Positions 978-13,178 of a DNA stretch of 13,178 bases are shown piece by piece (positions within the stretch are counted from its first letter, which is position 1; each line of letters begins with the position of its first letter). The notes below the pieces were generated by a model. The model saw only the letters and a program-made list of their open reading frames with translations, did no database searches and had not been told where the DNA came from. The DNA lies in assembly GCA_050012475.1 (NCBI GenBank), contig JBEKHC010000120.1, forward strand, positions 1 through 13,178, given 5' to 3'. This DNA is from Candidatus Velthaea sp. Its GTDB lineage: Bacteria; Vulcanimicrobiota; Vulcanimicrobiia; Vulcanimicrobiales; Vulcanimicrobiaceae. The translations under genes and the position numbers were made by a program.

Positions 978-1190
978 ATGGGTAGCCCGCTCATCGTATC
1001 AGACTCAGAGATCCTCGGTGGAACTCCTGTCTTCGCCGGAACCCGCGTTCCCGTGCGTCTTCTGTTCGAAAATCTTGCAGACGGCGCGAGCCTTTCTGAG
1101 ATCCTGGAAGCCTTCCCGACGCTCCAACGGGAGCAAGCGATCGAGGCGCTGCGCCAGGCAGACTCACTGATCGAGCGCAGTGCCTCGTAA
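978..1190 (+). CDS. DUF433 domain protein (putative antitoxin)
   Basis: 70 aa with DUF433 signature ILGGTPVFAGTRVPV...LADGASLSEILEAFPTL; directly upstream of a PIN-like gene. Confidence 0.9.
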   Translation: MGSPLIVSDSEILGGTPVFAGTRVPVRLLFENLADGASLSEILEAFPTLQREQAIEALRQADSLIERSAS

Positions 1191-1198
1191 AGAGTTCG

Positions 1199-1563
1199 GT
1201 GCGCGTACTTCTCGACGAGTGCGTGCCAAGACAGGTTAAGAACTGGTTGGCTGAAACACACGACGTCTCAACGATCTTCGATGTCGGCTGGGCAGCATGA
1301 AAAACGGGGCGCTCCTGCGCGAGGCGAACGAGTGCCTTGACGTACTGGTAACCGCTGACCAGAATATGTATCAGCAGCAGAGCTTCGCAGGGTTGACAAT
1401 CTCTCTCATGGTGCTTCCGACGAATCGCTTGCGACTAGTGAAGAATGCCGTGCCAGCGTTACTTCAATCTCTCGCCAGGCTTGTTCCGCGGCAGCGAATC
1501 GTCATCGATCTCGGGCCGGACACCAACTCTCGTTGCAGCGCATCGTCGAAGAAGGCACCGTGA
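1199..1563 (+). pseudogene. DUF5615 PIN-like toxin, frameshifted
   Basis: GTG 1199 gives MRVLLDECVPRQVKNWLAETHDVSTIFDVGWAA* (TGA 1298-1300). The family continues in another frame as MKNGALLREA...DVLVTADQN (ATG 1297). One extra base near 1295 would restore GWAGMKNG. Confidence 0.85.
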
Positions 1564-1665
1564 CACGCCACGTATTCGGTACGGTGACATAGCGCTGGCT
1601 TTCGTCCCACTGTTGGCCGTTGCGCAAATGGACCTCGCCGGTCCCCGCAAGTGCAAAGGCCGAAC

Positions 1666-1932
1666 GCAAACGTGGTCGCCGCGCTCGAAGGCTCCGGCAG
1701 CGTGGCGACGCGCCTCAAAGCGAGATCGCGGCCGTGCGTGCCGGTTACGCCGACGGCGAGGCCTCGTGCGTGATCAACCTCCTGGGCATCGGCGAAGCCG
1801 GCGACAAGTTCTCAAAGGAGCAGCGCGATACGCTCGACCTGTAGCTGCGCGCGCTCGAGAAGCCTCGCGCGACGCCGGCGTGCCGGCCGCGCGTGCCCGC
1901 CGGGTCGCCCTCGATGCGATCGTCCGCACCGA
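1666..1932 (+). pseudogene. Decayed partial copy of the TetR gene seen at the window start
   Basis: Reads ANVVAALEGSGSVATRLKA / IAAVRAGYADGEASCVINLLGIG...TLDL*LRALEK / RDAGVPAARARRVALDAIVRTE across two frameshifts and a TGG->TAG stop (1842-1844). Confidence 0.8.
1839..1932 (+). repeat. Direct repeat of positions 1-95
   Basis: Hand alignment with 1-95 shows 4 substitutions and a 1-bp deletion. Confidence 0.95.
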
Positions 1933-1933
1933 G

Positions 1934-2275
1934 AGCGCCGTCCCTTGGGCAACTCGTGCAGGAAGCCTCTCCGCGGTTCCCGGCGCGTTGCTGGCGCAGC
2001 TCGCGGTCAATGCGCCGTTTCGGGGCCAAGGTGCGGGCAAAGTCCTTGTTAAGCACGCGCTCTTGCGAATAGCCGGCCTTGCCGACGACTGGGGGTGCGC
2101 CGCGGTGGTCACCGACCCGATCGACGATCGCGCGCGCAACCTCTATCGAGGCTTCGATTTTGAGCCGCTGCGCGAAGGATCGAACCGGATGATCGTCGCG
2201 ACAACAATGATCGCCGCAATCGAACGCGGTCGCTGGACACACCCAGCGGCGCTTCGATCGCCGGCGCTAATATAG
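1934..2275 (+). pseudogene. GNAT acetyltransferase (AtaT/TacT-type toxin-like), N-terminally truncated
   Basis: VPGALLAQLAVNAPFRGQGAGKVLVKHAL...AVVTDPIDDRARNLYRGFDF matches the C-terminal half of GNAT TA toxins, including the acetyl-CoA motif RGQGAG. No N-terminus or cognate antitoxin seen. Confidence 0.75.
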
Positions 2276-2315
2276 ACAAAAACTCCGTGTTGGCATATGC
2301 TAGGCATATGCCAAC
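2273..2315 (+). promoter_or_regulatory. vapBC promoter with overlapping operator
   Basis: TAGACA (2273-2278), 17 bp, TATGCT (2296-2301). Perfect inverted repeat GTTGGCATATGC-TAG-GCATATGCCAAC (2289-2315) covers the -10 and the ATG at 2308. Confidence 0.75.
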
Positions 2316-2553
2316 CGATGACTCTGCGGCCCGACGCGTCAAGCTCTTCAAGAATGGTCGCAATCAAGCGGTGCGCATTCCACGAGAATTCGAGTTGCCG
2401 GGGGAGGACGCCCTAATGCGCAGGGACGGACCGCGGCTGATCATTGAACCGCTCGGCCCTCGATCGCTCGTCGTCTTACTCAAGACGCTTTCGCCAATCG
2501 AAGACGATTTTGCACCGATCGCTGAGCTGCCGACTGATCCGATTGATGTGTAA
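2308..2553 (+). CDS. vapB: AbrB/MazE-fold antitoxin (VapB/VagC-like)
   Basis: VKLFKNGRNQAVRIPREFELPG...LIIEP signature; stop abuts the vapC GTG. Confidence 0.9.
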   Translation: MPTDDSAARRVKLFKNGRNQAVRIPREFELPGEDALMRRDGPRLIIEPLGPRSLVVLLKTLSPIEDDFAPIAELPTDPIDV

Positions 2554-2952
2554 GTGAGGTATCTGCTCGATACCAACATTCTCTCGCACGTCATTCGCAA
2601 TCCGCAGGGTCGCGCCGCTCAGAAGATCGTCGAAGTCGGGGATCAAGCGGTCTGCACGAGCATTGTTGTCGCTGCCGAGCTTTGGTACGGCGCCATGAAG
2701 CGCAACTCGGATCGCCTGACTGCGCAAGTCGGTGCCGTCCTTGGAGCGATCGATATACTTGCAATCGCATCGCCTGTTGAACGCATTTACGGCGAGCTGC
2801 GCGCTCGGCTCGAACGAGAGGGAAACCAAATCGGTGGCAACGATCTGTTGATCGCCGCGCAAAGCATTTGCCTCGGACTAACCTTGGTGACCGACAATGA
2901 GCGTGAGTTTTTACGAATCGTCGAATTGCCATGCGCAAATTGGCTGCACTAA
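2554..2952 (+). CDS. vapC: VapC PIN-domain toxin
   Basis: YLLDTNILS, AELWYG, IGGNDLLIAA, LVTDNEREF; acidic PIN residues present; frame intact. Confidence 0.93.
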   Translation: MRYLLDTNILSHVIRNPQGRAAQKIVEVGDQAVCTSIVVAAELWYGAMKRNSDRLTAQVGAVLGAIDILAIASPVERIYGELRARLEREGNQIGGNDLLIAAQSICLGLTLVTDNEREFLRIVELPCANWLH

Positions 2953-3055
2953 AGAACGGCCGAGATCGGCGACCCGCTTCCCGCGAGCTTACTTTCTCGA
3001 GAGTGACTTCGGCTTTGACAACAAGCGCACCTCAAAAGGCGAAACGCCGCAGCCC

Positions 3056-3089
3056 TTGACTCAGCCAGTTATTTTGATGTATATACATT
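3056..3089 (+). promoter_or_regulatory. mazEF promoter/operator region
   Basis: TTGACT at 3056-3061 and perfect palindrome ATGTATATACAT at 3077-3088, just before ATG 3092. Exact -10 register is ambiguous. Confidence 0.6.
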
Positions 3090-3091
3090 GT

Positions 3092-3454
3092 ATGAACCGA
3101 CGTCCGGAGATTGTTAAGACCAGCGCCGCAAAGAATACTCCCATACCGAGATTAGGCGTCGACTTCAGTGCACTCGTCGTTTACGACGCGCGTGTCTACA
3201 AAGCCGGCAATTCGCTGGCGATTCGTATCCCCAGTACGATCGCCAAAAGGATCGCGCTGGAGGACGGCGTCGCTGTCGAGATGGCAGCTGATGAGGGCAT
3301 GCTTTACATTCGCAAAGCACCGTCGCGAGTGCTTACCGATCTCATCGAGCGGATCACGCCGGAAAACACTCATGGAGCCCTGTTCGATGAATCGGTGGGC
3401 GCCGAACGTTGGTGGAAGAATACGTCCCGGAAGTCGGACATATCGTCTGGTTAA
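3092..3454 (+). CDS. mazE: MazE/AbrB-family antitoxin
   Basis: KAGNSLAIRIP, LTDLIERITPENTHG and VGAERW are MazE-like. Start ATG 3092 inferred; the C-terminus runs 13 aa past the usual ExW end. Confidence 0.8.
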   Translation: MNRRPEIVKTSAAKNTPIPRLGVDFSALVVYDARVYKAGNSLAIRIPSTIAKRIALEDGVAVEMAADEGMLYIRKAPSRVLTDLIERITPENTHGALFDESVGAERWWKNTSRKSDISSG

Positions 3455-3754
3455 CCCTCGGCCCGCAACGGGGGCGCGAGCATGCCGGACGCCGGCCTTT
3501 CCTTGTCCCTTCACCACGGGATTACAACGCAAAAACGTCGCTTGCCGTCGGCGTCCCGATCACCTCGAAAGTCAAAGGATACCCGTTCGAGGTAGCGATC
3601 CGAGGCACGAATTCGATCGCCGGCGTTGCTCTCGCAGATCAGATAAAAAGCCTCGATTGGCGAGCACGGCTCGCCGGCTATGCCGCTCAGGCTTCGCCAT
3701 CCAACCCTTCGCTCCGTACGCCGCCTTCTCACAACACTGCTGCAGCTGAAATAA
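3409..3754 (+). pseudogene. mazF: MazF/PemK toxin with a C-terminal frameshift
   Basis: YVPEVGHIVW, GREHAGRRPFLV, PITSKVKGYPFEV, LADQIKSLDWRAR. After ...QASPS the MazF-like terminal helix TLRSVRRLLTTLLQLK* lies in the +1 frame (3704-3754); the uncorrected ORF runs to 3789. Confidence 0.8.
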
Positions 3755-3913
3755 GCGATAGCGCGGCTCATTCGGGGCGTGAGCACTGACGGCTACGGAA
3801 CCGATGCTGAGCATGAGCTAGTCGTCCTGCCGCAGAGATGAACGAGGTAGTCTGACGACGCTCATGCCATGTCGCATGCAAACTTAGCGGGCGGACATGG
3901 AGCGGGCAGAAGA

Positions 3914-3958
3914 CACGGAGCGAGCGGGCATCCGGAGATGCGCGACGCTCGCCCCGCG
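3914..3958 (-). terminator. Stem-loop downstream of the DM13 gene
   Basis: On the minus strand CGCGGGGCGAGCG pairs with CGCTCGCTCCGTG (two G-U pairs that form only on this strand). Inner stem GCATC-TCCG-GATGC has a UNCG-type loop; TCTTCT follows. Confidence 0.55.
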
Positions 3959-3970
3959 CCGGACGAGGGA

Positions 3971-4378
3971 TTACTTCAGGCTTGCGGCGCCGAAGTTGAC
4001 GTGGAAGCGTTCGCAGTAGATCGCGACCGACTTGACGTCGTCCAGATTGACGTTCGCGGGGATCACGTAATTCTGATTGCCGGTGTTGCCTTTGAGATCG
4101 CCGAGGTCGACGGACTTTGCGTCTTCCACATCGTTGCCGCTGATTGCGTGGTCGGCGAGGATGACGTGGACTTTCGGTCCGTTCGAGGTGCTGAAGTTGG
4201 CGAGGCGCAGGATGCGGCTGCCGTCATCGAGTTTGTAGATCGTGGCAGTGCCGCTCGTGGCGTGCGCAGCGCTGACGAAGGCGCCGCTGCTCAGGGAAGC
4301 CGGCGCGGCGTTCGCGGCGAGCGGCGCGAGGGTCGAGAGAATCGAGAGGGCGAGGGCGGCGCGAGTTGCGATATTCAT
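3971..4378 (-). CDS. Secreted DM13 domain protein
   Basis: Signal-like MNIATRAALALSILSTLAPLAANA, then DM13 motifs SGTATIY, LRLANFSTSNGPKVHVIL, DLGDLKGNTGNQNY, VAIYCERFHVNFGAASL. Alternative start at 4393. Confidence 0.88.
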   Translation of the reverse strand: MNIATRAALALSILSTLAPLAANAAPASLSSGAFVSAAHATSGTATIYKLDDGSRILRLANFSTSNGPKVHVILADHAISGNDVEDAKSVDLGDLKGNTGNQNYVIPANVNLDDVKSVAIYCERFHVNFGAASLK

Positions 4379-4434
4379 GATGAGTGCTTTCATTTTGGTG
4401 TCGTGCGGTGCACGTGAGGTGAGGATGAAGGTGA

Positions 4435-4461
4435 GTCTCGGGTCGGCGCGTTTCGTTACAG
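4435..4461 (-). promoter_or_regulatory. Candidate ECF promoter (copy 1, upstream of DM13)
   Basis: CTGTAACG-N13-CGAGAC on the minus strand; overlaps the TAA of the upstream micro-ORF. Confidence 0.65.
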
Positions 4462-4614
4462 GTGCGCGGCCGACGTTGTCGCGGTGGCCGTCGGGAACGG
4501 ATCGTCGACGCTCTTGTTGACGAAGAGCAGTTCGGGCCGGAAGGCCAGCCAGAGCATGGCGACCGCGAGCGTGCCGAGAATGATGACGACGGGTTTGCGG
4601 AGCAGCTTGGTCAT
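4456..4614 (-). CDS. 52-aa membrane micro-protein resembling the N-terminal anchor of DM13 proteins
   Basis: ATG 4614 with GAGG RBS; MTKLLRKPVVIILGTLAVAMLWLAFRPELLFVNKSVDDPFPTATATTSAAHL*. Basic N-terminus, one TM segment, FRPExLFVNxxVxxxxP motif. Confidence 0.7.
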   Translation of the reverse strand: MTKLLRKPVVIILGTLAVAMLWLAFRPELLFVNKSVDDPFPTATATTSAAHL

Positions 4615-4644
4615 GGTGGAAATCCTCGCTGAAGGATGAGTGCG

Positions 4645-5322
4645 ATGCCGGTACGTCTCGGTGAGAGCGGCGAACGTTACAGCGGGCCGGATGAAAATCG
4701 CACGCTCGCGCTGCTGCGCGCCGGCGACGAGGCGGCGTTCCTCGAACTGGTCGACCGCTACGCACCCGCGATGCAGAAGATCGCCCGCGCCTACGTGCGC
4801 GACGACGCCACCGCCGAAGACGTCGTGCAGGAAGCCTGGATGGGCGTCTTGCGCGGTTTGCCGACCTTCGAGGGACGAAGCAGCCTGCGGGGCTGGATCT
4901 TCACCATCGTCGTCAATCGCGCCAAAACGCGCGGGGTGCGCGAGGCGCGCAGCGTTCCGTTTTCGGCCCTCGCGCACGACGAAGTGCAGCGCGACGATCC
5001 GTCGGTCGCGCCGGACCGCTTCGCGGGTCCCGGCGAAGAGTGGCCGCGGCATTGGCGCGACGGCCCCGTCCCCTGGACCGATCGCCCGGAAGAAAAGCTG
5101 TTGAGTCGCGAGCTCCGCGCGCGCATCGACGCGGCCATCGACGCCTTGCCCGCCGCTCAGCGCTCGGTGATCGTTCTGCGCGACATCGCCGGCCAGCCGA
5201 CTCAAGACGTCTGTAACGCCCTGGACCTCAGCGAGACCAATGTTCGTGTGCTGCTCCACCGTGCCCGCGCGAAACTCCGCCGCGCTCTCGACCCTTATCT
5301 CACCGGAGACCGATTCGCGTGA
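4645..5322 (+). CDS. ECF-subfamily sigma-70 factor
   Basis: GDEAAFLELVDRY, AEDVVQEAW, FEGRSSLRGWIFTI (region 2); LPAAQRSVIVLRD...VRVLLHRARAKLR (region 4). ATG 4645 chosen for GAAGGA spacing; ATG 4636 is an alternative. Confidence 0.93.
   Translation: MPVRLGESGERYSGPDENRTLALLRAGDEAAFLELVDRYAPAMQKIARAYVRDDATAEDVVQEAWMGVLRGLPTFEGRSSLRGWIFTIVVNRAKTRGVREARSVPFSALAHDEVQRDDPSVAPDRFAGPGEEWPRHWRDGPVPWTDRPEEKLLSRELRARIDAAIDALPAAQRSVIVLRDIAGQPTQDVCNALDLSETNVRVLLHRARAKLRRALDPYLTGDRFA
4655..4682 (-). promoter_or_regulatory. Candidate ECF promoter (copy 2, upstream of the micro-ORF, antisense within the sigma 5' end)
   Basis: CTGTAACG-N14-CGAGAC on the minus strand, about 40 bp before ATG 4614. Confidence 0.65.
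5211..5237 (+). promoter_or_regulatory. Candidate ECF promoter (copy 3, internal to sigma gene, facing the anti-sigma gene)
   Basis: CTGTAACG-N13-CGAGAC on the plus strand, about 80 bp before GTG 5319. Confidence 0.5.
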
Positions 5323-5567
5323 CGCCTGAGATGGATTGCATCGACCTCGTCGAGATCACGACCGACTACCTCGAAGGCAAACTCGCGCCTGAGGACGCCG
5401 CGCGCCTCGAAGCCCACTTAACGGAATGCGACGGCTGCACGGAATACCTGCGCCAAATGCGCATCACGCAGGACACCCTCGGCCGTCCGGATGCCGCCGT
5501 CATCCCCGCCCCCGGCCGCGAAAAGCTCCTCGCGGCGTTCCGCGCCTGGAAAGCCGAAAAGCCGTAG
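5319..5567 (+). CDS. zf-HC2 (ZAS) anti-sigma factor, soluble
   Basis: GTGA overlap with the sigma stop and GGAG RBS. C...DYLEG.L...HLTECDGC gives HxxxCxxC; no TM segment. Confidence 0.92.
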   Translation: MTPEMDCIDLVEITTDYLEGKLAPEDAARLEAHLTECDGCTEYLRQMRITQDTLGRPDAAVIPAPGREKLLAAFRAWKAEKP

Positions 5568-5579
5568 CGCGAGCGACGT

Positions 5580-5603
5580 GGCGCCGCGTTAGCGGCGCTG
5601 TTT
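5580..5603 (+). terminator. Possible intrinsic terminator of the sigma/anti-sigma operon
   Basis: GCGCCGC-GTTA-GCGGCGC followed by TGTTT (short U tract). Confidence 0.45.
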
Positions 5604-6530
5604 GGCCGCCTCCGCGAAATCAGGGCTGCGCCGCCGCTTCGCCGAGCTGATCGAGAAGTTTGCGCCCGGGGACGAAGCCGGGGCGAAACGCGGGGTGGGA
5701 AACGGTGCAGTGACGGCGTCGGGCGGCTCGTCCGAGAGCACACCGGACATCGCGGTAAATCCGCTGCCGACGCTGGCGCATCCGACGTTCTTGCGCATCG
5801 CACGCGGCGATGAGACGCTTGCGTTCAAGCGCGGTCGCCGCAGCATCGCGTGGGTGGAATCCGACGCCCCCGACGGCTACCTCTCGTTTATATGAAAACG
5901 CGTACGCGTATATGAAAACGCGCGTCTCGTGGTGGTCGATCCGACGCTCACGAGCATCAGCTTCGTGCGCGCGTCGGATTTCCGTGGCGGCCGCGCACGT
6001 CTCACCGTGCGCACCGCGTTGCCGGCGGGCTCCTCCGGCGAATTCGCGGTGCGCTTGGCGAATGCCGAGAGGCGTCTTCACGGACACGGCACCATAGGCG
6101 GTCGTCGATCCGCCGGCACTCGAACCCGCGACGGACGATGGCAAGAGCCGCCTGCGCGTGCCCAACATCTACGAAGTTTACTCGGCCGACTGGCCGCGGC
6201 CGAGTTCGCCAATGCCAGCGTTAGCCGGGAACACGAATCGGTCGACGACTACAGCATCGCCGTCAACATGGATAACCGTCACGTGCGGCGTCTGCTGACC
6301 ACGATCGACACCAGGCGGCCGGCATCGCGCGCGTGCAGTCAAGGTACCTGGTGCGGACCGCGTTCTATCTCTTTCTGCAGCACGAAGGCCGCCGCCACGA
6401 CCCCGCGATCTACGATGTCGCCCTCGAAGCCTACCAACAAAGCTAACTCGAACGCGTCGCGCAAACCATCGTTACCGCGATCGCCGCCGTCGACCGCATC
6501 GACTCCGCGGCATTGCTGAAACTCAAAGTC
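5602..6530 (+). pseudogene. Decayed C-terminal fragment of an unidentified protein
   Basis: Protein-like text can be stitched across frames 1/2/1/3: PLPTLAHPTFLRI..ESDAPDGYLS, SDFRGGRARLTVR, VPNIYEVYSADWP, VNMDNRHVRRLL, YLVRTAFYLFLQH..YQQS*LERVAQTIVTAI. In-frame stops at 5893, 6095 and 6444; boundaries approximate. Confidence 0.6.
5889..5922 (+). repeat. 14-bp direct repeat (period 20) around a 12-bp palindrome
   Basis: TATATGAAAACGCG at 5889-5902 and 5909-5922; ACGCGTACGCGT at 5898-5909. Confidence 0.9.
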
Positions 6531-6654: not shown

Positions 6655-7404
6655 TCAATCGATTTCGCGAGCGTTGAGATCGACGAGAGCTCCATTTATA
6701 CCGCTCGCGCGATCGCTTGCCAAGAACGTCAGCACGTCGGCGACTTCTTGCGGAGTCGCCGCTGCCGCAAGGTCATCCGCAGAATAATACGCTTCGGCGC
6801 CCGTGAAAGCCACGCCGCCGAGCACGAGGGCATTCGCTACGATGCCGTCGGCTTTATGCTCGCGCGCAATTGCAAGCATCAGCGCATTGACTCCTGCTTT
6901 CGCCGCCGCGAACAGCCCGCGCCCCGGCGCTGGCGAGATCGAGGAACCGGCGGTGACGGTCACGATGCGACCGCGCGATCGCGCGCCGTCACGATACGGT
7001 TGGCCGAGCATCGCACGAAGCGCCGGCAAGGCAAGGTTGTAGGCGGTTTCCGTGAATGCGGACAACGAACGCCGCAGATCGTCAGGACTCGAGGTCGCGA
7101 GCGGAATCAGACCGCCCCCGCTTCCGGCCAGATTGACCACCGCGTCGACGCGCCCGAACGTTGCCATGCATTCGTCGACGGCGGCCGACGCCGACCCTGG
7201 ATCGCTGAGGTCCGCCCGGATCGCGACCGCGCGATCGCGCAGTTCGGGATCGGCAGCATTCGCGATCGTCGCCACCGCACGTTCGCGTTCGCGGGAGAGC
7301 ACCGCGACGCGAGCGCCTTCGCGCAACAGCGTCGCGAGCGTGGCTCCACCCACGCGCCCGGTCGATCCAGCCAGCACGATCGCATCATCGTTGACGAGGT
7401 TCAT
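6655..7404 (-). CDS. SDR-family oxidoreductase, atypical (FxxxK)
   Basis: AGSTGRVG nucleotide loop, ADLSD, FGRVDAVVNLAG, GRIVTV, FAAAKAG, EVADVLTFLASDRASGING. Start ATG 7404 inferred. Confidence 0.88.
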   Translation of the reverse strand: MNLVNDDAIVLAGSTGRVGGATLATLLREGARVAVLSRERERAVATIANAADPELRDRAVAIRADLSDPGSASAAVDECMATFGRVDAVVNLAGSGGGLIPLATSSPDDLRRSLSAFTETAYNLALPALRAMLGQPYRDGARSRGRIVTVTAGSSISPAPGRGLFAAAKAGVNALMLAIAREHKADGIVANALVLGGVAFTGAEAYYSADDLAAAATPQEVADVLTFLASDRASGINGALVDLNAREID

Positions 7405-7522
7405 GCAGCACTCGCAGCGCCGAAGAGCTGCCGACGCATGATGACGGCGTGAGTCCAGTTTGCCGTGCGATCGGCCCTGGACGATTCGCATCTTCCGGTT
7501 TCGTTTCCGCAGCGGAGGCCGA

Positions 7523-8008
7523 TCATTCTCGACCCACAGCCTCTAACCGCGCTCGAGACGTATCGTGCGCAGCGTCGATATCCTGAACGGCCGTCGCGGC
7601 GGCCAGCCCGAATTTCGGCATGCCGTCGTAGATCGCTTCGGCTTTTCCCGGCTCGACGATGTACGTCTCGTGCCAGAGGCCGACGCTCCCCGTCCCGCGC
7701 ACGAGCTTGTTGTATTCGCGCCACGCCGGAAAGTGCGTTTTGTCGGGATCGCGCGCAAACCGCTCGAGGTCCTCGTACGATGTCCAATATTGCACCATGA
7801 GCGTGCGCGGTGGGGTAAAAAACATCTCGGCGTGCAAAAACCCGATCTCGGGGTGCCGGCTCAGCTCGCCCAGCATTTTCGGCATCGCCCGGAAAACAGC
7901 GAACCAGCGGCGGAAATCCCACCAGCGATTGACGCGCATTCCGATCAGAAACACCACGATCGGTTTTTCGAGCTGAGCGGTAACTCGTCGATTGAGGATC
8001 GGTGTCAT
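7523..8008 (-). CDS. DUF4188 domain protein
   Basis: ATG 8008 with GAGG RBS; VVFLIGMRVNRWW, AMPKMLGEL, VQYWTSYEDLERFA, H.PAWREYN, VGLWHETY, AIYDGMPKFGL. Confidence 0.88.
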   Translation of the reverse strand: MTPILNRRVTAQLEKPIVVFLIGMRVNRWWDFRRWFAVFRAMPKMLGELSRHPEIGFLHAEMFFTPPRTLMVQYWTSYEDLERFARDPDKTHFPAWREYNKLVRGTGSVGLWHETYIVEPGKAEAIYDGMPKFGLAAATAVQDIDAAHDTSRARLEAVGRE

Positions 8009-8073
8009 GACGAACCTCGTACCGGAAAGATCGCGAAGAACCGCAAGTTCGACGCCGGCGAACCGTCTCCCAG

Positions 8074-8841
8074 TCAATCGCTGCGCGCCAACCCCCGATC
8101 GGACGGCCGCGAGAGCCGCCGCGAAATACCGCGCGCCGCCGTCTGGACGGCTGCCCCGACGCGATGCGGGTCAATCCGCGCCTTCGGCCCCGTTACCGAA
8201 ACCGCGGCGAGAACAACGTCGTCGCGAAACACCGGAGCCGCAACACAAACGACGCCGGGGACGAGCTCCTCGTTATCGACGGCCGTTCGATCGCGCGCAA
8301 TGCGAAACAGTTCGGCTTCGAGCGCTACCGGATCGGTGATCGAGTGGGGTGTCTTCGCGACCAGCTTCGCCAAACCGACGCTGCTCCGAACCTCATCCGA
8401 CGAAAACGCCAGCATTGCTTTACCCAGCGCCGTGCAGTGCGCCGGCAGCCGTCCGCCGAGGCGGGTTGAGATCGGGACGCGGCGGTGGCCGCCGATCTTG
8501 GCGAGATAGACGACATCCTTGCCGTCGAGCACGCCCAGATTGACGATCTCGTGCGTCGCTTCGTACAGGTCTTCCATGAAGGGAATGGCGATTTCGTGCA
8601 AGTCGAAGCGTTGCAGCTGCACGCGTTGGCCGAGCTCGAAGAGCCGAATCCCAAGCGCGAATTGTTCGCCGGTCCGCTCCAGCCAACCGCGCTCGACGAG
8701 ACCGTGGGCAATCCGATGCACGGTCGATTTCGGCAACTCCGTCCGAGCCGCAAGTTCCGCTAACGACAGCGCGAGGTCATCGTCCCCGAACGCTTCGATG
8801 ACACGCAGGGTTCGCCCGAACACCGAAACGTCCGCCGCCAT
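8074..8841 (-). CDS. IclR-family transcriptional regulator
   Basis: HTH LSLAELAARTELPKSTVHRI; effector domain GGRLPAHCTALGKAMLA, DNEELVPGVVCVAAPV. Confidence 0.95.
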   Translation of the reverse strand: MAADVSVFGRTLRVIEAFGDDDLALSLAELAARTELPKSTVHRIAHGLVERGWLERTGEQFALGIRLFELGQRVQLQRFDLHEIAIPFMEDLYEATHEIVNLGVLDGKDVVYLAKIGGHRRVPISTRLGGRLPAHCTALGKAMLAFSSDEVRSSVGLAKLVAKTPHSITDPVALEAELFRIARDRTAVDNEELVPGVVCVAAPVFRDDVVLAAVSVTGPKARIDPHRVGAAVQTAARGISRRLSRPSDRGLARSD

Positions 8842-8852
8842 GGCGCGCCGTT

Positions 8853-8871
8853 CGTTCCATTGAGTGGAACG
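8853..8871. promoter_or_regulatory. Palindromic IclR-type operator
   Basis: CGTTCCA-TTGAG-TGGAACG in the divergent intergenic region; a weaker related site CAATCCG-CCGAT-CGGAACG lies at 8916-8934. Confidence 0.65.
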
Positions 8872-8989
8872 CCTGCTTGACGCGGTTCGGCCATTTGGCT
8901 GAGACTTGTCGTATGCAATCCGCCGATCGGAACGTTCGTCCGTCCCTCAGTCCGGCACTTTCTGATTGCTCGTACATTGGCCGAGCAGC

Positions 8990-9913
8990 ATGCCGGTAGC
9001 GGCCAAGGCGCGTTTCGCCGCAGGTTCCGGGGTGCCGCTGGTCACGCCGTTCCGAAACGGTGCGCTCGATCTCGACGCGTTTGCCGGCCTCGTGCAGTTC
9101 CAGATCGATGCCGGCACCGATGCTCTCATCATCTGCGGCAGCACCGGCGAAAACCAAGCGCTCTCACTGGACGAGCGCGCCGAGCTGATCGATTGCGCGA
9201 CCGCAGCCGCGGTCGGCCGCATCGCCGTCATCGCGGCAACCGGCTGCGAAACCGAAGCCGAGACGCTCGACCTCTCCGAACGTGCGACGCATAGCGGCGC
9301 CGACGGCCTCCTCGTCATCACACCGCGCGCCACCGCTGCGTCGCAAGACGGTGTCGTCGCGTATCTCGGCAACGTCGCGGCGCGCACTCACCTGCCCATC
9401 TACGTCTATAATTATCCGGCACGCACGCACGTCGACGTCAGCGCCGAAACCATCGAGCGGCTCGTCTACGCGCACCCCAACGTCGTCGGCCTCAAGCAAA
9501 CCGACGGCAATCTGTCTCTGGTTACCCAAGTCCGCCGCCGGCTCGGCCCCGATTTCTCCATCTTCTGCGGGATCGAACAGTTCGCACTGCCCGGCCTGAT
9601 GCTGGGCTCTGCGGGGATGATCACCGCGTCGGGCAACATCGTGCCGCGCCAGGTCGCCGATCTGTATCGCGCCTTCCGCGCCGAGCGGTTCGACGCTGCG
9701 CGCTGCTTGCACGACACACTCAGCGACATCTTCGACGCGGTCGTCTACGCCGAGTCGTCGCCGGCCGCCGCGCTCAAATACTTGCTGCGCCGCGCCGGGC
9801 GCATCCCGACGAACGAACACCGGCTCCCATCGCTCCCTCCGTCCGAACGAGACGAACGGCGGCTGCACGCCGCACTTGCCGCCGCGACCGATGCCGTCAC
9901 CGCGCTGTCTTGA
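8990..9913 (+). CDS. DapA/NAL-family class I aldolase (HpaI-like rather than true DHDPS)
   Basis: PLVTPF, GSTGE, YNYPAR, Schiff-base Lys in VVGLKQ. FCGIE motif recalls DapA-fold HpaI aldolases; PYY is replaced by PRA. Confidence 0.85.
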   Translation: MPVAAKARFAAGSGVPLVTPFRNGALDLDAFAGLVQFQIDAGTDALIICGSTGENQALSLDERAELIDCATAAAVGRIAVIAATGCETEAETLDLSERATHSGADGLLVITPRATAASQDGVVAYLGNVAARTHLPIYVYNYPARTHVDVSAETIERLVYAHPNVVGLKQTDGNLSLVTQVRRRLGPDFSIFCGIEQFALPGLMLGSAGMITASGNIVPRQVADLYRAFRAERFDAARCLHDTLSDIFDAVVYAESSPAAALKYLLRRAGRIPTNEHRLPSLPPSERDERRLHAALAAATDAVTALS

Positions 9914-11019
9914 AGATCGACGACGTCAGCCTCACGCTGTTCGCTTGGAACGGACTGCCGGCAATCCGCTACGCCGTGCAGTCGCGCGTCGAAGCGGGCT
10001 CCGGCGTCCTCGGCTTGCTCACGCTCACGACCGAGGATGGCCTCGCCGGCCATGCCTTTCTGGGTTCGGCCCTCTATCCGGCCGACGTCGACGCCACCGG
10101 GTTGATGCGCTTTCTCAAACCGCTCGTGCTCGGGCGCGATCCGCTGTGGCGCGAACGCATCGTCGCCGATTGCTGGACCCGCAGCCGGATGACCAGCGTG
10201 CGGTCCATCGGCGCGATCGACGTCGCGCTGTGGGACCTCGCCGGCAAGATCGCGGGGCTGCCCGTTCACGCGCTGCTCGGGACGTTCCGTGACTCGGTTC
10301 CCGCCTACGCGAGCTCGGCGATCCTCGACTCGCCCGATGCGTACGCTGCCGAAGCCCTGCGCTATCAATCTGCCGGCTGGCGCGCGTACAAGATCCATCC
10401 GCCGCAACACTGGAAAACCGACATCGCCGTGTGTCAAGCCGTGCGCGCGGCGGTCGGACCGGACTATCCGCTGATGCTCGACGCCGCTTGGAGTTATCCC
10501 TACGACGTCGCCTTGCGCGTCGGGCGCGCGATCGAAGCGCTCGGCTTCCTCTGGTATGAAGATCCGCTCGCCGAGCGCGACATCTACAACTGCGCGAAGC
10601 TGCGCGAGAAGCTCGACATCCCGCTCATGGCCACCGAATATCCGCCGCACGGCCTCGACGCCTACGCACCCTGGCTGCTGCTGCGCGCGACCGACTATCT
10701 GCGCGGCGACGTCGCCGTCAAGGGCGGGATTACCACCCTGGTCAAAGCCGCGCATCTCGCCGAAGCCTTCGGTCTCAAATTCGAGGTGCATCACGGCGGC
10801 AACTCGCTCAACAACGTCGCCAATCTGCACGTTCTCGCAGCCATCAACAACGCCGATTATTTTGAAGTATTGCTGCCGGACGCCGCCCACCGTTACGGTC
10901 TCGAACGCGAAATCGAGGTCGACGCAAACGGCTTCGTGCATGCTCCAACCGAGCCCGGCCTGGGCATGCCGATCGACTTCGGGCTCATCGAGCACAACGC
11001 GCTCACCACGTTACGCTGA
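9910..11019 (+). CDS. Mandelate racemase/muconate lactonizing enzyme (enolase superfamily) protein
   Basis: TTGA overlap with the aldolase stop. IDVALWDLAGKIAGLPVHALLG, KIHP, metal ligands in MLDA/YEDP/ATEY, GGIT, PTEPGLG. Confidence 0.93.
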   Translation: MKIDDVSLTLFAWNGLPAIRYAVQSRVEAGSGVLGLLTLTTEDGLAGHAFLGSALYPADVDATGLMRFLKPLVLGRDPLWRERIVADCWTRSRMTSVRSIGAIDVALWDLAGKIAGLPVHALLGTFRDSVPAYASSAILDSPDAYAAEALRYQSAGWRAYKIHPPQHWKTDIAVCQAVRAAVGPDYPLMLDAAWSYPYDVALRVGRAIEALGFLWYEDPLAERDIYNCAKLREKLDIPLMATEYPPHGLDAYAPWLLLRATDYLRGDVAVKGGITTLVKAAHLAEAFGLKFEVHHGGNSLNNVANLHVLAAINNADYFEVLLPDAAHRYGLEREIEVDANGFVHAPTEPGLGMPIDFGLIEHNALTTLR

Positions 11020-11026
11020 CGCACCT

Positions 11027-11057
11027 GTTGCGCGATCGCTCACCGATCGAACGCAAC
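11027..11057 (+). other. Intergenic stem-loop
   Basis: GTTGCG-CGATCG-CTCAC-CGATCG-(AA)-CGCAAC; no U tract. Confidence 0.45.
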
Positions 11058-11116
11058 GCACGCACCTCCGATTCGTTCACTCGATCGCTTGCACTAATTG
11101 AAGGGGGAATACGCTC

Positions 11117-12166
11117 ATGTCGAACGACGCAAAGCTGCCGACCATCTCTCGGCGCGGCCTCATCAAAGCCGGCGGGGCCGTCGCGGCGACCGCGGCCGGC
11201 GCGTCCGCGGTTGGCTGGCCGAACATCGTGCTCGCGCTCAACAAAGTACGGATCGTGATCGTGCCCAAAGGCCTCAACAATCCGGTCTTCAAAATCGCCG
11301 ATTTGTCGGGCCAGCAGCGCGCGAACGAACTGGGCGACGTCGAATTCCGCTTCACCGGGTCGCCGCAATCCGACGGCGCGCAGCAAGTCGCCGCAGTCGA
11401 CGGCCTCATCGCGGCCGGCTACGACGGCATCGGCATCTCCGTCGACGACGGTGAAACGATGATCGAACCCATCAACCACGCGATCGCCAAGGGCATTCAC
11501 GTCATCACCTGGGATTCCGACGCGCCCAAGAGCAAACGCGCGTGCTTCTACGGCGTGGACAACGTCAAAGGCGGCCAGAAGCAGGCCGATATCATGAACA
11601 AGCTGCTCGCCGGCAAGACCGGCAACGTCTGGATTCTCAGTGGCCTTGCGTCCGCGCCGAATCTGCAAGACCGGCTGCGCGGCGTGAAGATGAACCTCAA
11701 CAAAAACCTCACGATCGCCGGCACGAGCTTCTGCGACGAAGACATCGCCAAGGGCGTGACCGAAACCGAAAACGTCCTGCGCTCGCACCCCGATCTCATC
11801 GGCTTCGTCATCGTCGGTGCCTGGCCGCTGCTCGCGAGCCCCGGCGCCATGCCGCTGCTGACGGCGCGCGCGAAAGCCGGACTCAAGGTGGTCGGCTTCG
11901 ATTACGTCGCTCAGGAGTTGCCGTTCATTCAAAACGGGACGGTCTACGCGACGGTGGGTCAGGATTATTGGGGCTGGGGTTATCAATCCGTGCAGATTCT
12001 CTACAACCTCATCAAAGGCAAGAAATATCCCGATTTCGTGCCGCAGAAAATCCCCGTGGTCGATCAGTCCAACGTCGCCGACTACGTCGAAAAGTGGAAG
12101 AACGCGAACACCGTCGAGGGTGCGTTCAAGGCGTTCGGCGAGCCGCCCGTGCAGCCGCTGGCATAA
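11117..12166 (+). CDS. Sugar ABC-type substrate-binding protein (type I PBP fold) with Tat signal
   Basis: AAGGGGG RBS; SRRGLIK twin-arginine motif plus hydrophobic stretch; KGLNNPVF, YDGIGIS, VITWDSDAP, YGVDNVKGG, VVGFD, TVGQDYWGWGY. Confidence 0.92.
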   Translation: MSNDAKLPTISRRGLIKAGGAVAATAAGASAVGWPNIVLALNKVRIVIVPKGLNNPVFKIADLSGQQRANELGDVEFRFTGSPQSDGAQQVAAVDGLIAAGYDGIGISVDDGETMIEPINHAIAKGIHVITWDSDAPKSKRACFYGVDNVKGGQKQADIMNKLLAGKTGNVWILSGLASAPNLQDRLRGVKMNLNKNLTIAGTSFCDEDIAKGVTETENVLRSHPDLIGFVIVGAWPLLASPGAMPLLTARAKAGLKVVGFDYVAQELPFIQNGTVYATVGQDYWGWGYQSVQILYNLIKGKKYPDFVPQKIPVVDQSNVADYVEKWKNANTVEGAFKAFGEPPVQPLA

Positions 12167-12172
12167 CGGCGC

Positions 12173-13178
12173 ATGCAAACCACGAAGTACCTCGCGAAGA
12201 ACATCGAGTTCGTCAGCCGCTCCGACCAAGGCGGTCGGGGCGACGGCTGTCAGATCATGGTGCACCGCGGCTACGCCTACATCGGGCACCTCTTCAGCAA
12301 CGGCTTCACGATCCTCGACGTGCGCGATCCGCGCAAGCCGCGCACCGTCGATTTCATCCCGGCGCCGCCGCAGACGTGGAGCCTGCACGTGCAGACGCAC
12401 GAGGATCTGCTCTTCGTCGTCAACGCGCTCGACATGTACAACCTGCCGGTGTTTTTCGAGGAGTCGGAATACCACTCGAAGTCGGTGATCGAGACGCTCG
12501 ACGAGAAAGGTTATAGCTTCACGGCCGGGTTGCGCGTCTATAACATCGCCGACCCCGAGAAGCCGCGCGAGATCGGCTTCCTGCCCGTCGACGGGTTCGG
12601 GCTGCATCGGATGTGGTACATTGGCGGCGCGTATCTGTACGCGTCGGCGCACATCCGCGGCTACACCGACTACGTGCTGCTCGTCATCGACGTGTCGGAT
12701 CCGACCAAGCCGCACGAAGTCGGCCGCTACTGGCTGCCGGGGATGTGGGTGGCCGGGGGCGAGAAACCGTCGTGGCCCAGCGGGCGGCGATTCTCCGCGC
12801 ATCATGCGATCGTTCCGGCCGGGAGCGACATCGCGTATTCGTCCTGGCGCGACGGCGGCATGGCGCTGCTCGACATCAGCGATAAAACCAAGCCGCGGCT
12901 GATCGCACACCAGAATCTCTCGCCGCCGTTCGGGGGCGGGACGCATACGACGCTCCCGCTGCCCGACCAGCAACTCGTCATCGTGGCCGACGAATCGATC
13001 GCCGACAACTGCGCCGACGGCATCAAGTACATCTGGGTCGTCGACGTGCGCGAACCGGCCAATCCGGTGACGATCGCGACCATGCCGCTGCCGGAGGAGG
13101 ACGATTACTGCAAGCAACCCGGACACTTCGGACCGCACAACTTGCACGAAATGCGGCCGGGGTCGTTCCGCGATTCCA
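12173..13178 (+). CDS. LVIVD-repeat (beta-propeller) protein, 3' end outside window
   Basis: Not in ORF track because it has no stop. ATG 12173: MQTTKYLAKNIEFVSRSDQGGRGDGCQIMVHRGYAYIGH... with repeats FTILDVRDPRKP, LRVYNIADPEKP, LLVIDVSDPTKP, MALLDISDKTKP, IWVVDVREPANP. Confidence 0.88.
   Translation, partial: MQTTKYLAKNIEFVSRSDQGGRGDGCQIMVHRGYAYIGHLFSNGFTILDVRDPRKPRTVDFIPAPPQTWSLHVQTHEDLLFVVNALDMYNLPVFFEESEYHSKSVIETLDEKGYSFTAGLRVYNIADPEKPREIGFLPVDGFGLHRMWYIGGAYLYASAHIRGYTDYVLLVIDVSDPTKPHEVGRYWLPGMWVAGGEKPSWPSGRRFSAHHAIVPAGSDIAYSSWRDGGMALLDISDKTKPRLIAHQNLSPPFGGGTHTTLPLPDQQLVIVADESIADNCADGIKYIWVVDVREPANPVTIATMPLPEEDDYCKQPGHFGPHNLHEMRPGSFRDS

Follow-up and report, generated by a model that had tools for sequence, protein, structure and literature searches.

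The window, that is, the whole stretch of 13,178 nucleotides analysed from a Candidatus Velthaea sp. contig, carries genes for an ECF sigma factor, a soluble zinc anti-sigma factor, a DM13-domain protein and a micro-ORF, together with three copies of a bipartite repeat (Table 1). The start of the sigma gene at 4645 was favoured since its close homologs are mostly 225 aa long, and the GTG start of the anti-sigma gene overlaps the sigma stop codon. No hydrophobic stretch was seen in the anti-sigma sequence. The DM13 assignment (PF10517) scored 97.2 bits against a gathering cut-off of 25, and this DM13 gene was the sole one found in the genome. A scan of positions 3800-5800 for sigma-70 promoters and terminators gave nothing, and no promoter for the sigma gene was located there. 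Three metatranscriptome contig sets from the same study yielded only short pieces of 85-95% identity from other organisms, which were counted neither way.

Table 1. Genes and candidate promoters of the sigma/DM13 locus (window positions)
Feature	Position	Strand	Remarks
DM13-domain protein	3971..4393 (start 4393 or 4378)	-	Pfam DM13, E 1e-27; signal-peptide-like N-terminus
Candidate promoter, copy 1	4435..4461	-	-35 TGTAACG 4460-4454, -10 CGAGAC 4440-4435; probable start ~4426 (A); ahead of DM13 gene
Micro-ORF, 52 aa	4456..4614	-	Hydrophobic anchor and conserved segment that begins single-chain DM13 proteins
ECF sigma factor	4636..5322, likely start 4645 (225 aa)	+	Pfam Sigma70_r2 and r4_2; long sigma2-sigma4 linker; ECF293-like
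Candidate promoter, copy 2	4655..4682	-	-35 4681-4675, -10 4660-4655; probable start ~4646 (A); antisense in sigma codons 7-16; ahead of micro-ORF
Candidate promoter, copy 3	5211..5237	+	-35 5212-5218, -10 5232-5237; probable start ~5246 (G); sigma codons 192-201; ahead of anti-sigma gene
Soluble zinc anti-sigma factor, 82 aa	5319..5567	+	zf-HC2; Cys7, His33, Cys37, Cys40

The surroundings of the locus were read by eye. Positions 978-3789 hold small genes resembling toxin-antitoxin pairs in the ORF list (a DUF433-like pair, GNAT, VapBC-like and MazEF-like), and a short tandem duplication of ~20 bases at 5889-5923 interrupts a possibly degraded gene downstream of the anti-sigma gene. A catabolic-looking cluster at 6655-13178 comprises an SDR oxidoreductase, a DUF4188-like protein, an IclR-like regulator, a DHDPS-like aldolase, a mandelate-racemase-like enzyme, a sugar-binding protein and an LVIVD-repeat protein.

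A preliminary description of this DNA had reported 14 identical bases in two blocks at three sites, each oriented toward a start codon about 40-80 bp downstream, with no further copy in the window. In the window the pattern CTGTAACG-N12..15-CGAGAC recovered exactly these three sites, and none of 200 shuffled sequences reached three matches. The distances from the -10 box to the start codon were measured as 41 or 56 nt for DM13, 40 nt for the micro-ORF and 81 nt for the anti-sigma gene. The absence of further copies extends to the whole genome (5,363,455 bases, 204 contigs, 64% G+C), where the strict pattern matched only the same three sites, as did three of the relaxed patterns tried, including TGTAAC-N14..17-CGAGA and TGTAAC-N15..17-GAGAC. 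The genome-wide chance expectation of the strict pattern is ~0.013 per spacer length; the triple is a real feature, far beyond chance. The likeness among the copies is confined to the two boxes, the spacers being unrelated. The TAA of copy 1 is the stop codon of the micro-ORF, and none of the three copies faces the sigma gene from upstream.

The scan of the genome and of homologous loci, which had been proposed as a check, was extended to relatives, and matches to the sigma factor were found in 3/41 and 8/301 related genomes (own genome included). In both same-genus matches the four genes and the three sites are retained without exception. Among five loci from another genus, DM13, the micro-ORF and copies 1 and 2 are kept in four and copy 3 in two, and one locus has a DUF417 gene behind copy 2. 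Copy 1 is retained in seven of the eight Vulcanimicrobiota loci, which are the seven carrying DM13, and a divergent site near the sigma start is present in all eight. DM13 was detected in 6/201 family-level genomes; G110 (96% complete) and G1329 (83%) carry DM13 and the micro-ORF without a sigma match and without the motif there. The motif thus accompanies the sigma factor rather than DM13.

A family set of 94 non-duplicate sigma loci, obtained from searches centred on five phylum-level groups, gave the consensus YGTAACG-N16/17-GAC, which in many cases is closely followed by a leaderless start codon. With the embedded position inside the sigma gene excluded, a GAC lay 16-18 nt downstream at 60 of 139 YGTAAC sites near the 94 sigmas (42 at exactly 17), the 60 including window copies 1 and 2 and their close kin. 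The same GAC test on five control hexamers gave 10/122, 9/95, 0/27, 8/161 and 14/230 (0-10%). Across relatives the leading C of the repeat is not conserved, and the -10 element, given as CGAGAC in the preliminary description, has a conserved core of GAC. At 19 of the 60 sites an ATG begins 9-11 nt after the GAC, and because this spacing fits leaderless mRNAs, the probable transcription starts in the window were placed at 4426, 4646 and 5246. In the recognition helix of the sigma factor, the residues that correspond to E. coli RpoE 171, 172 and 175 are Arg, Val and His, as in SigD chain 3vep, and C. glutamicum SigD reads GTAAC (PMC7826278 supplement). In the 36/38 TIGR02943 loci with a readable helix, the free promoters have the form TGTAAG-N17-G(A/T)C, which resembles the sigmaE consensus of Neisseria (PMC2893595).

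The sigma factor probably groups with ECF293; it fits the description of that group, and the tree supports the placement. ECF293, the former ECF13/101/117, includes Neisseria sigmaE-MseR and P. aeruginosa PA3285 (PMC7826278 supplement, PMC2893595). The extended linker of this group is present, as Pfam r2 ends at residue 99 and r4 starts at 162, with 19 extra residues relative to E. coli sigmaE, and the gene at +1 encodes the short soluble zinc-finger anti-sigma factor (82 aa, zf-HC2). The anti-sigma has the RsrA/MseR-type Cys-x25-His-x3-Cys-x2-Cys arrangement with the same offsets as MseR and RsrA, and its Cys7/His33/Cys37/Cys40 resemble in spacing the Cys4/His30/Cys34/Cys37 of MseR (PMC2893595). 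The three-Cys sigma4 trait, stated for most ECF293 subgroups only, is missing, with one Cys in the whole protein. The TIGR02943 (Sig70_famx1) equivalog cut-off of 162.2 bits was not reached (95.9 bits), and TIGR02943 represents a sister clade. In a FastTree phylogeny, which held no named ECF293 reference, the 94 family rows and 36 TIGR02943 rows fell on one side against 16 other ECFs with support 91. Eight family rows have an ACP synthase III gene at -1 (five were inspected, one confirmed as PRK07515), and we take these eight members to be orthologs of PA3285. An ACP synthase III gene at -1 is listed for ECF293s2 (PMC7826278 supplement). The marks of ECF16, a six-helix DUF1109 anti-sigma and a CGAA -10 element, are absent, the locus having a soluble zf-HC2 protein and a GAC core.

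On this comparative basis the three repeats are probably promoters of the form YGTAACG-N16/17-GAC read by the local ECF293-like sigma factor, two of them lying inside the sigma gene itself; the promoters would drive the anti-sigma gene and a two-piece DM13 and not the sigma gene, and we put the probability of this reading at about 0.8. That the repeats are the cognate promoters of the local sigma factor, as the preliminary description had proposed, is strongly supported by the comparison of relatives. Its outline lacked the location of two copies inside the sigma gene, the fact that none of them drives sigma, and the apparent identity of the micro-ORF as the N-terminal anchor half of a split DM13.

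The -35 element of copy 3 consists of the TGT AAC codons of Cys193-Asn194, and its -10 element of the Ser-Glu-Thr codons just before the recognition helix in the region-4 helix-turn-helix. The site is thus contained in the sigma coding sequence and points toward the anti-sigma gene, as an internal anti-sigma promoter should. An alternative is that copies 1 and 2 are real promoters and copy 3 is a silent by-product of the protein motif C-N-x4-S-E-T. The residues do belong to a conserved helix-turn-helix, C-N...E-T being found in 104/118 top homologs with a readable site, and the anti-sigma gene is already translationally coupled to sigma. In the 94 family genes the embedded site is full in 21, has a GTC-type -10 in 11, reads TGTAAT in 13 and is missing in 49, among them 3/8 Vulcanimicrobiota loci, which have TGC there. 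The embedded copy is evidently dispensable, because 49/94 genes are without it, and the Cys is mostly kept even after loss of the promoter, so a protein constraint acts too. A protein constraint, however, does not choose TGT over TGC. The Cys193 codon is TGT in 40/45 genes with Asn next and in 8/35 with another residue next, and for Cys-Asn the proportion holds after dereplication at 70% identity (26/28) and 60% identity (13/14). The background is 11-17%, with TGT in 45/419 Cys-Asn pairs of the genome's long ORFs (~11%) and in 3149/19023 of all Cys codons, and 32/244 anti-sigma Cys codons are TGT. Among 23 conserved two-fold columns the bias is strongest at Cys193, followed by Asn202, which lies in the start-site region. 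Where Arg-Asn replaces Cys-Asn (seven genes), 5/7 use CGT AAC, against a background of 256/4642, so that GTAAC is preserved through the Cys-to-Arg changes; moreover, loci without the embedded site can have a free copy directly before the anti-sigma gene (L095, L153). These codon choices indicate that copy 3 is under DNA-level selection, and a by-product is an improbable explanation.

The sister clade keeps the same position, with TGT AAG in 14/15 Cys-Lys genes of TIGR02943. The sixth base of the embedded element varies with the residue at RpoE position 171: Arg there is accompanied by C (31) or T (13) and never by G, His or Trp by G (14) or T (3) and never by C. Free sites switch alike (44/66 TGTAAC vs 13/43 TGTAAG), and Arg171/-31 has been named as a specificity residue-base pair and tested by Todor et al. 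(PMC7776599). This C/G covariation amounts to one contrast between two clades, and the TIGR02943 genomes are lower in G+C; in independent-pair tests, with two to three supported pairs only, no effect was seen. One quick tree and one FastTree were used. An upstream autoregulatory site was found in 1/30 loci with the embedded site vs 13/49 without it (p 0.013, uncorrected), in a comparison that covered 92/94 loci, left out the 13 TGTAAT loci and accepted GAC, GTC and CAC as -10, a choice made after seeing the data. The independent-pair version of this comparison (three pairs) showed nothing, and such exclusivity is a lead only.

All eight sigmas of the clade beside ACP synthase III (L158, L160-L166) keep TGT AAT without a GAC/GTC box at the usual offset, and no -10 was recognisable in the eight TGTAAT genes from the Pseudomonadota search; either a different -10 is used or the element is a relic. 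In L095, L016 and L017 the anti-sigma gene is upstream of sigma in divergent orientation and is faced by a TGTAAC or CGTAAC site; it has thus kept its place behind the motif despite the rearrangement. In L141 the anti-sigma gene is upstream of sigma on the same strand.

The reader of the sites could also be a repressor, or an ECF sigma from elsewhere in the genome that recognises GTAAC (ECF16- or SigD-like), instead of the local sigma factor. ECF16 reads (T/C)GTAAC-N17-CGAA and SigD reads GTAAC/GAT (PMC8315932, PMC7826278 supplement), so the -35 box is shared, and 42 ECF candidates were counted in the genome at a first look. The -10 core is nevertheless GAC in this family and not GAA or GAT, and the motif accompanies these sigmas in different phyla and before different genes, is absent at DM13 in the two genomes without a sigma match and has a sixth base that tracks this sigma's own specificity residue, which together leave such a reader quite unlikely. 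Relics of local duplication or recombination without any promoter role would accord with three near-identical boxes within 800 bp and with the clearly rearranged (split) DM13 gene, but only the two boxes are alike, the spacers are unrelated, and the fixed 17-18 nt offset, the orientation to start codons and the leaderless spacing recur in distant phyla, so that this origin is very improbable.

Returning to the reading as promoters of the local sigma factor, copy 2 occupies the first sigma codons in antisense. The N-terminal extension of the protein follows the pattern [R/G/S]-[L/V]-x4..5-[E/K/D]-R-Y in 30/32 closest homologs, for which protein sequences only were compared. Arg, Gly and Ser share NGT-form codons, as would be expected if the antisense -10 box limited the DNA sequence at this position, and copy 2 may constrain these codons. 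The probable antisense start lies within the sigma ATG (4645-4647), so the copy-2 transcript would overlap any sigma leader; interference with sigma expression is plausible and represents the least certain step.

The preliminary description had spoken of a self-contained regulon, and a small one is supported. Genome-wide, 960 YGTAACG sites showed no enrichment of GAC at offset 17 (20 vs 8-30 at other offsets), and a wider regulon was rejected on this ground. The pattern TGTAACR-N15/16-RGAC had 29 matches in five sigma-bearing relatives, 13 of them at the locus, and in five genomes without a sigma match it had 12 vs 20 for the reversed control. Two weaker intergenic TGTAACG matches in the genome (C14:55430(+) and C150:5706(+)), with GCGGAC or AGCGAC and within chance expectation, precede ORFs that by eye are cation-diffusion-transporter-like and HTH-regulator-like and are possible extra targets. 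Across the family, 36 genes downstream of the motif were scanned, and those of redox or stress type were a pyridine nucleotide-disulphide oxidoreductase, an AhpC/TSA protein, a molybdopterin oxidoreductase, two DoxX and one DUF417; the others were three lactonase-like propellers, two anti-sigmas, transporters and 12 without a Pfam match. A redox or metal stress signal, to which the preliminary description had linked DM13, is plausible by analogy, given the RsrA/MseR-type Cys-His spacing, the redox genes that follow the motif in other lineages and the SOD-like predicted fold of a DM13 homolog.

Behind the motif in two loci (L015:5546-5851 and L135:2524-2733) lie small secreted peptides with repeated SCGG-type Cys motifs and no Pfam match, which presumably resemble precursor peptides of metal-binding modified peptides.

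The micro-ORF can be aligned to residues 1-50 of single-chain DM13 proteins (e.g. P0192, P0193, P0195, P0198, P0203 and P0221). Its 20-codon core is nearly invariant in seven loci, the differences being mostly synonymous (L001 vs L005: eight synonymous, no non-synonymous). A search for longer forms with the micro-ORF itself returned only one over-extended call of the same peptide, and the homology emerged from the DM13 homologs. The micro-ORF accompanies DM13 in sigma-less relatives, and in G110 its position is downstream of DM13, so the two stay together even when their order changes. An ancestral anchored DM13 protein thus appears to have been divided between an anchor peptide and a separate exported domain; that the two re-associate is a guess.

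A sequence search found no DM13 relative with a solved structure. The predicted model of P0193, a single-chain homolog (35-row alignment, pLDDT 88), adopts the beta-barrel fold of Cu/Zn superoxide dismutase (SOD), its best alignments being with chains of that family: the 14 top rows are all Cu/Zn-SOD family (Z 8.1-9.6, rmsd ~3 Å, 100-113 residues), and unrelated rows begin only at Z 6.5. Against 4n3t the model gave Z 9.6 and rmsd 2.7 Å over 108 residues, with a Foldseek E of only 0.015. In the 35 DM13 rows His44, His76 and Cys127 are invariant and Asp96 nearly so. With 6-14% identity to SOD and few invariant residues, SOD activity is not implied, and the shared predicted fold shows no function. 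The window protein shares the Pfam match (PF10517) with DM13 proteins; here anchor and domain are separate genes.

These observations can be assembled into a circuit. The sigma factor would be made at a basal level from another promoter and held by the soluble zinc anti-sigma factor until thiol-oxidising or metal stress released it. Copy 1 would then yield the exported DM13 domain, copy 2 the membrane-anchor peptide and, by read-through, DM13 as well, and copy 3 extra anti-sigma that shuts off the response. As copy 2 would fire back across the sigma start codon and leader, lower sigma expression may be a further result. The likely outcome is a circuit of negative feedback with no positive autoregulation, a built-in brake kept by many bacteria. 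A bolder joint reading is tentative and rather doubtful: sigma genes of the ECF293 clade would carry their own target promoter in the helix-turn-helix codons, ten codons from the reading residue, with lock and key co-evolving, and here an antisense copy would in addition self-repress sigma while switching on a two-piece, membrane-docked DM13 of SOD fold. If true, it would describe a doubly self-limiting redox or copper switch and open a first way into the function of bacterial DM13.

Circuits of this kind are already known, PrshA and rseAP3 being established internal anti-sigma promoters. In C. glutamicum sigH-rshA, the SigH-dependent PrshA inside sigH drives only the ZAS anti-sigma, with sigma made from housekeeping promoters; it differs in belonging to ECF12, in its motif GGAA/GTT and in being shown experimentally in one species (PMC3489674), whereas the present site was traced by codon choice across phyla and is joined by a second antisense site in the 5' codons. 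The rseAP3 promoter within E. coli rpoE is likewise sigma-dependent and serves the anti-sigma operon, but its start lies 228 nt upstream of rseA, the anti-sigma is a membrane protein and rpoE is also positively autoregulated (PMC8595263). ECF16 (Brucella BcrS, Caulobacter SigF) shares the -35 TGTAAC, the 17-nt offset and, in its own case, a role in oxidative/chlorine stress, but has CGAA as -10, a six-helix DUF1109 membrane anti-sigma and autoregulation (PMC8315932).

Known ECF293 systems are alike in the long linker, the short soluble zinc anti-sigma at +1 and a very small regulon (PMC7826278 supplement, PMC2893595), and the Neisseria consensus GTMAGBWTT-12/13-CGTCTAAH puts GTC 17-18 nt after the hexamer, a geometry similar to that of the window promoters (PMC2893595). 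They differ from the present locus, where the -35 ends in C and not G, the -10 core is GAC, region 4 has one Cys and not three, and no upstream autoregulatory site is found. The 2021 classification stated that ECF293 promoter motifs are not conserved and that the gonococcal Ecf seems not autoregulated (PMC7826278 supplement), while meningococcal sigmaE was reported as autoregulated (PMC2893595). The ECF293 entry mentions no internal promoter, in contrast to copy 3 here, and the terms "DM13", "GAGAC" and "AGAC" are absent from the available part of the PMC7826278 supplement. The ECF293 motif was likely missed because searches look upstream of sigma, and in many members the site is within the gene or directed away from it. 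The literature search found no paper on this motif for ECF293, on an embedded promoter in ECF293 or on a link between DM13 and the SOD fold, although the PMC7776599 datasets may hold predicted motifs for the clade; it likewise gave no published account of the branch motif, of its location in helix-turn-helix codons across phyla, of the second antisense copy or of the split DM13.

A candidate promoter consensus is hereby supplied for a large, unstudied ECF293 branch in which the standard classification found none, and it would make the regulons of this branch predictable. Internal anti-sigma promoters would pass from single-species cases to a trait traceable across phyla by one codon, and a non-redox explanation is offered for one ECF293 region-4 cysteine. 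DM13, a widespread domain, would be linked to a probable redox switch, to a predicted SOD-like fold and to a natural split form.

Two or three family sigmas occur within ~4-30 kb in one genome at L118/L097, L125/L129, L123/L128 and L009/L143, with the embedded site in some only. In G001, identical TGTAACG-containing 26-mers are paired at distant places (C14:754860 with C14:856767, and C13:14734 with C17:27981) and probably lie inside repeated elements.
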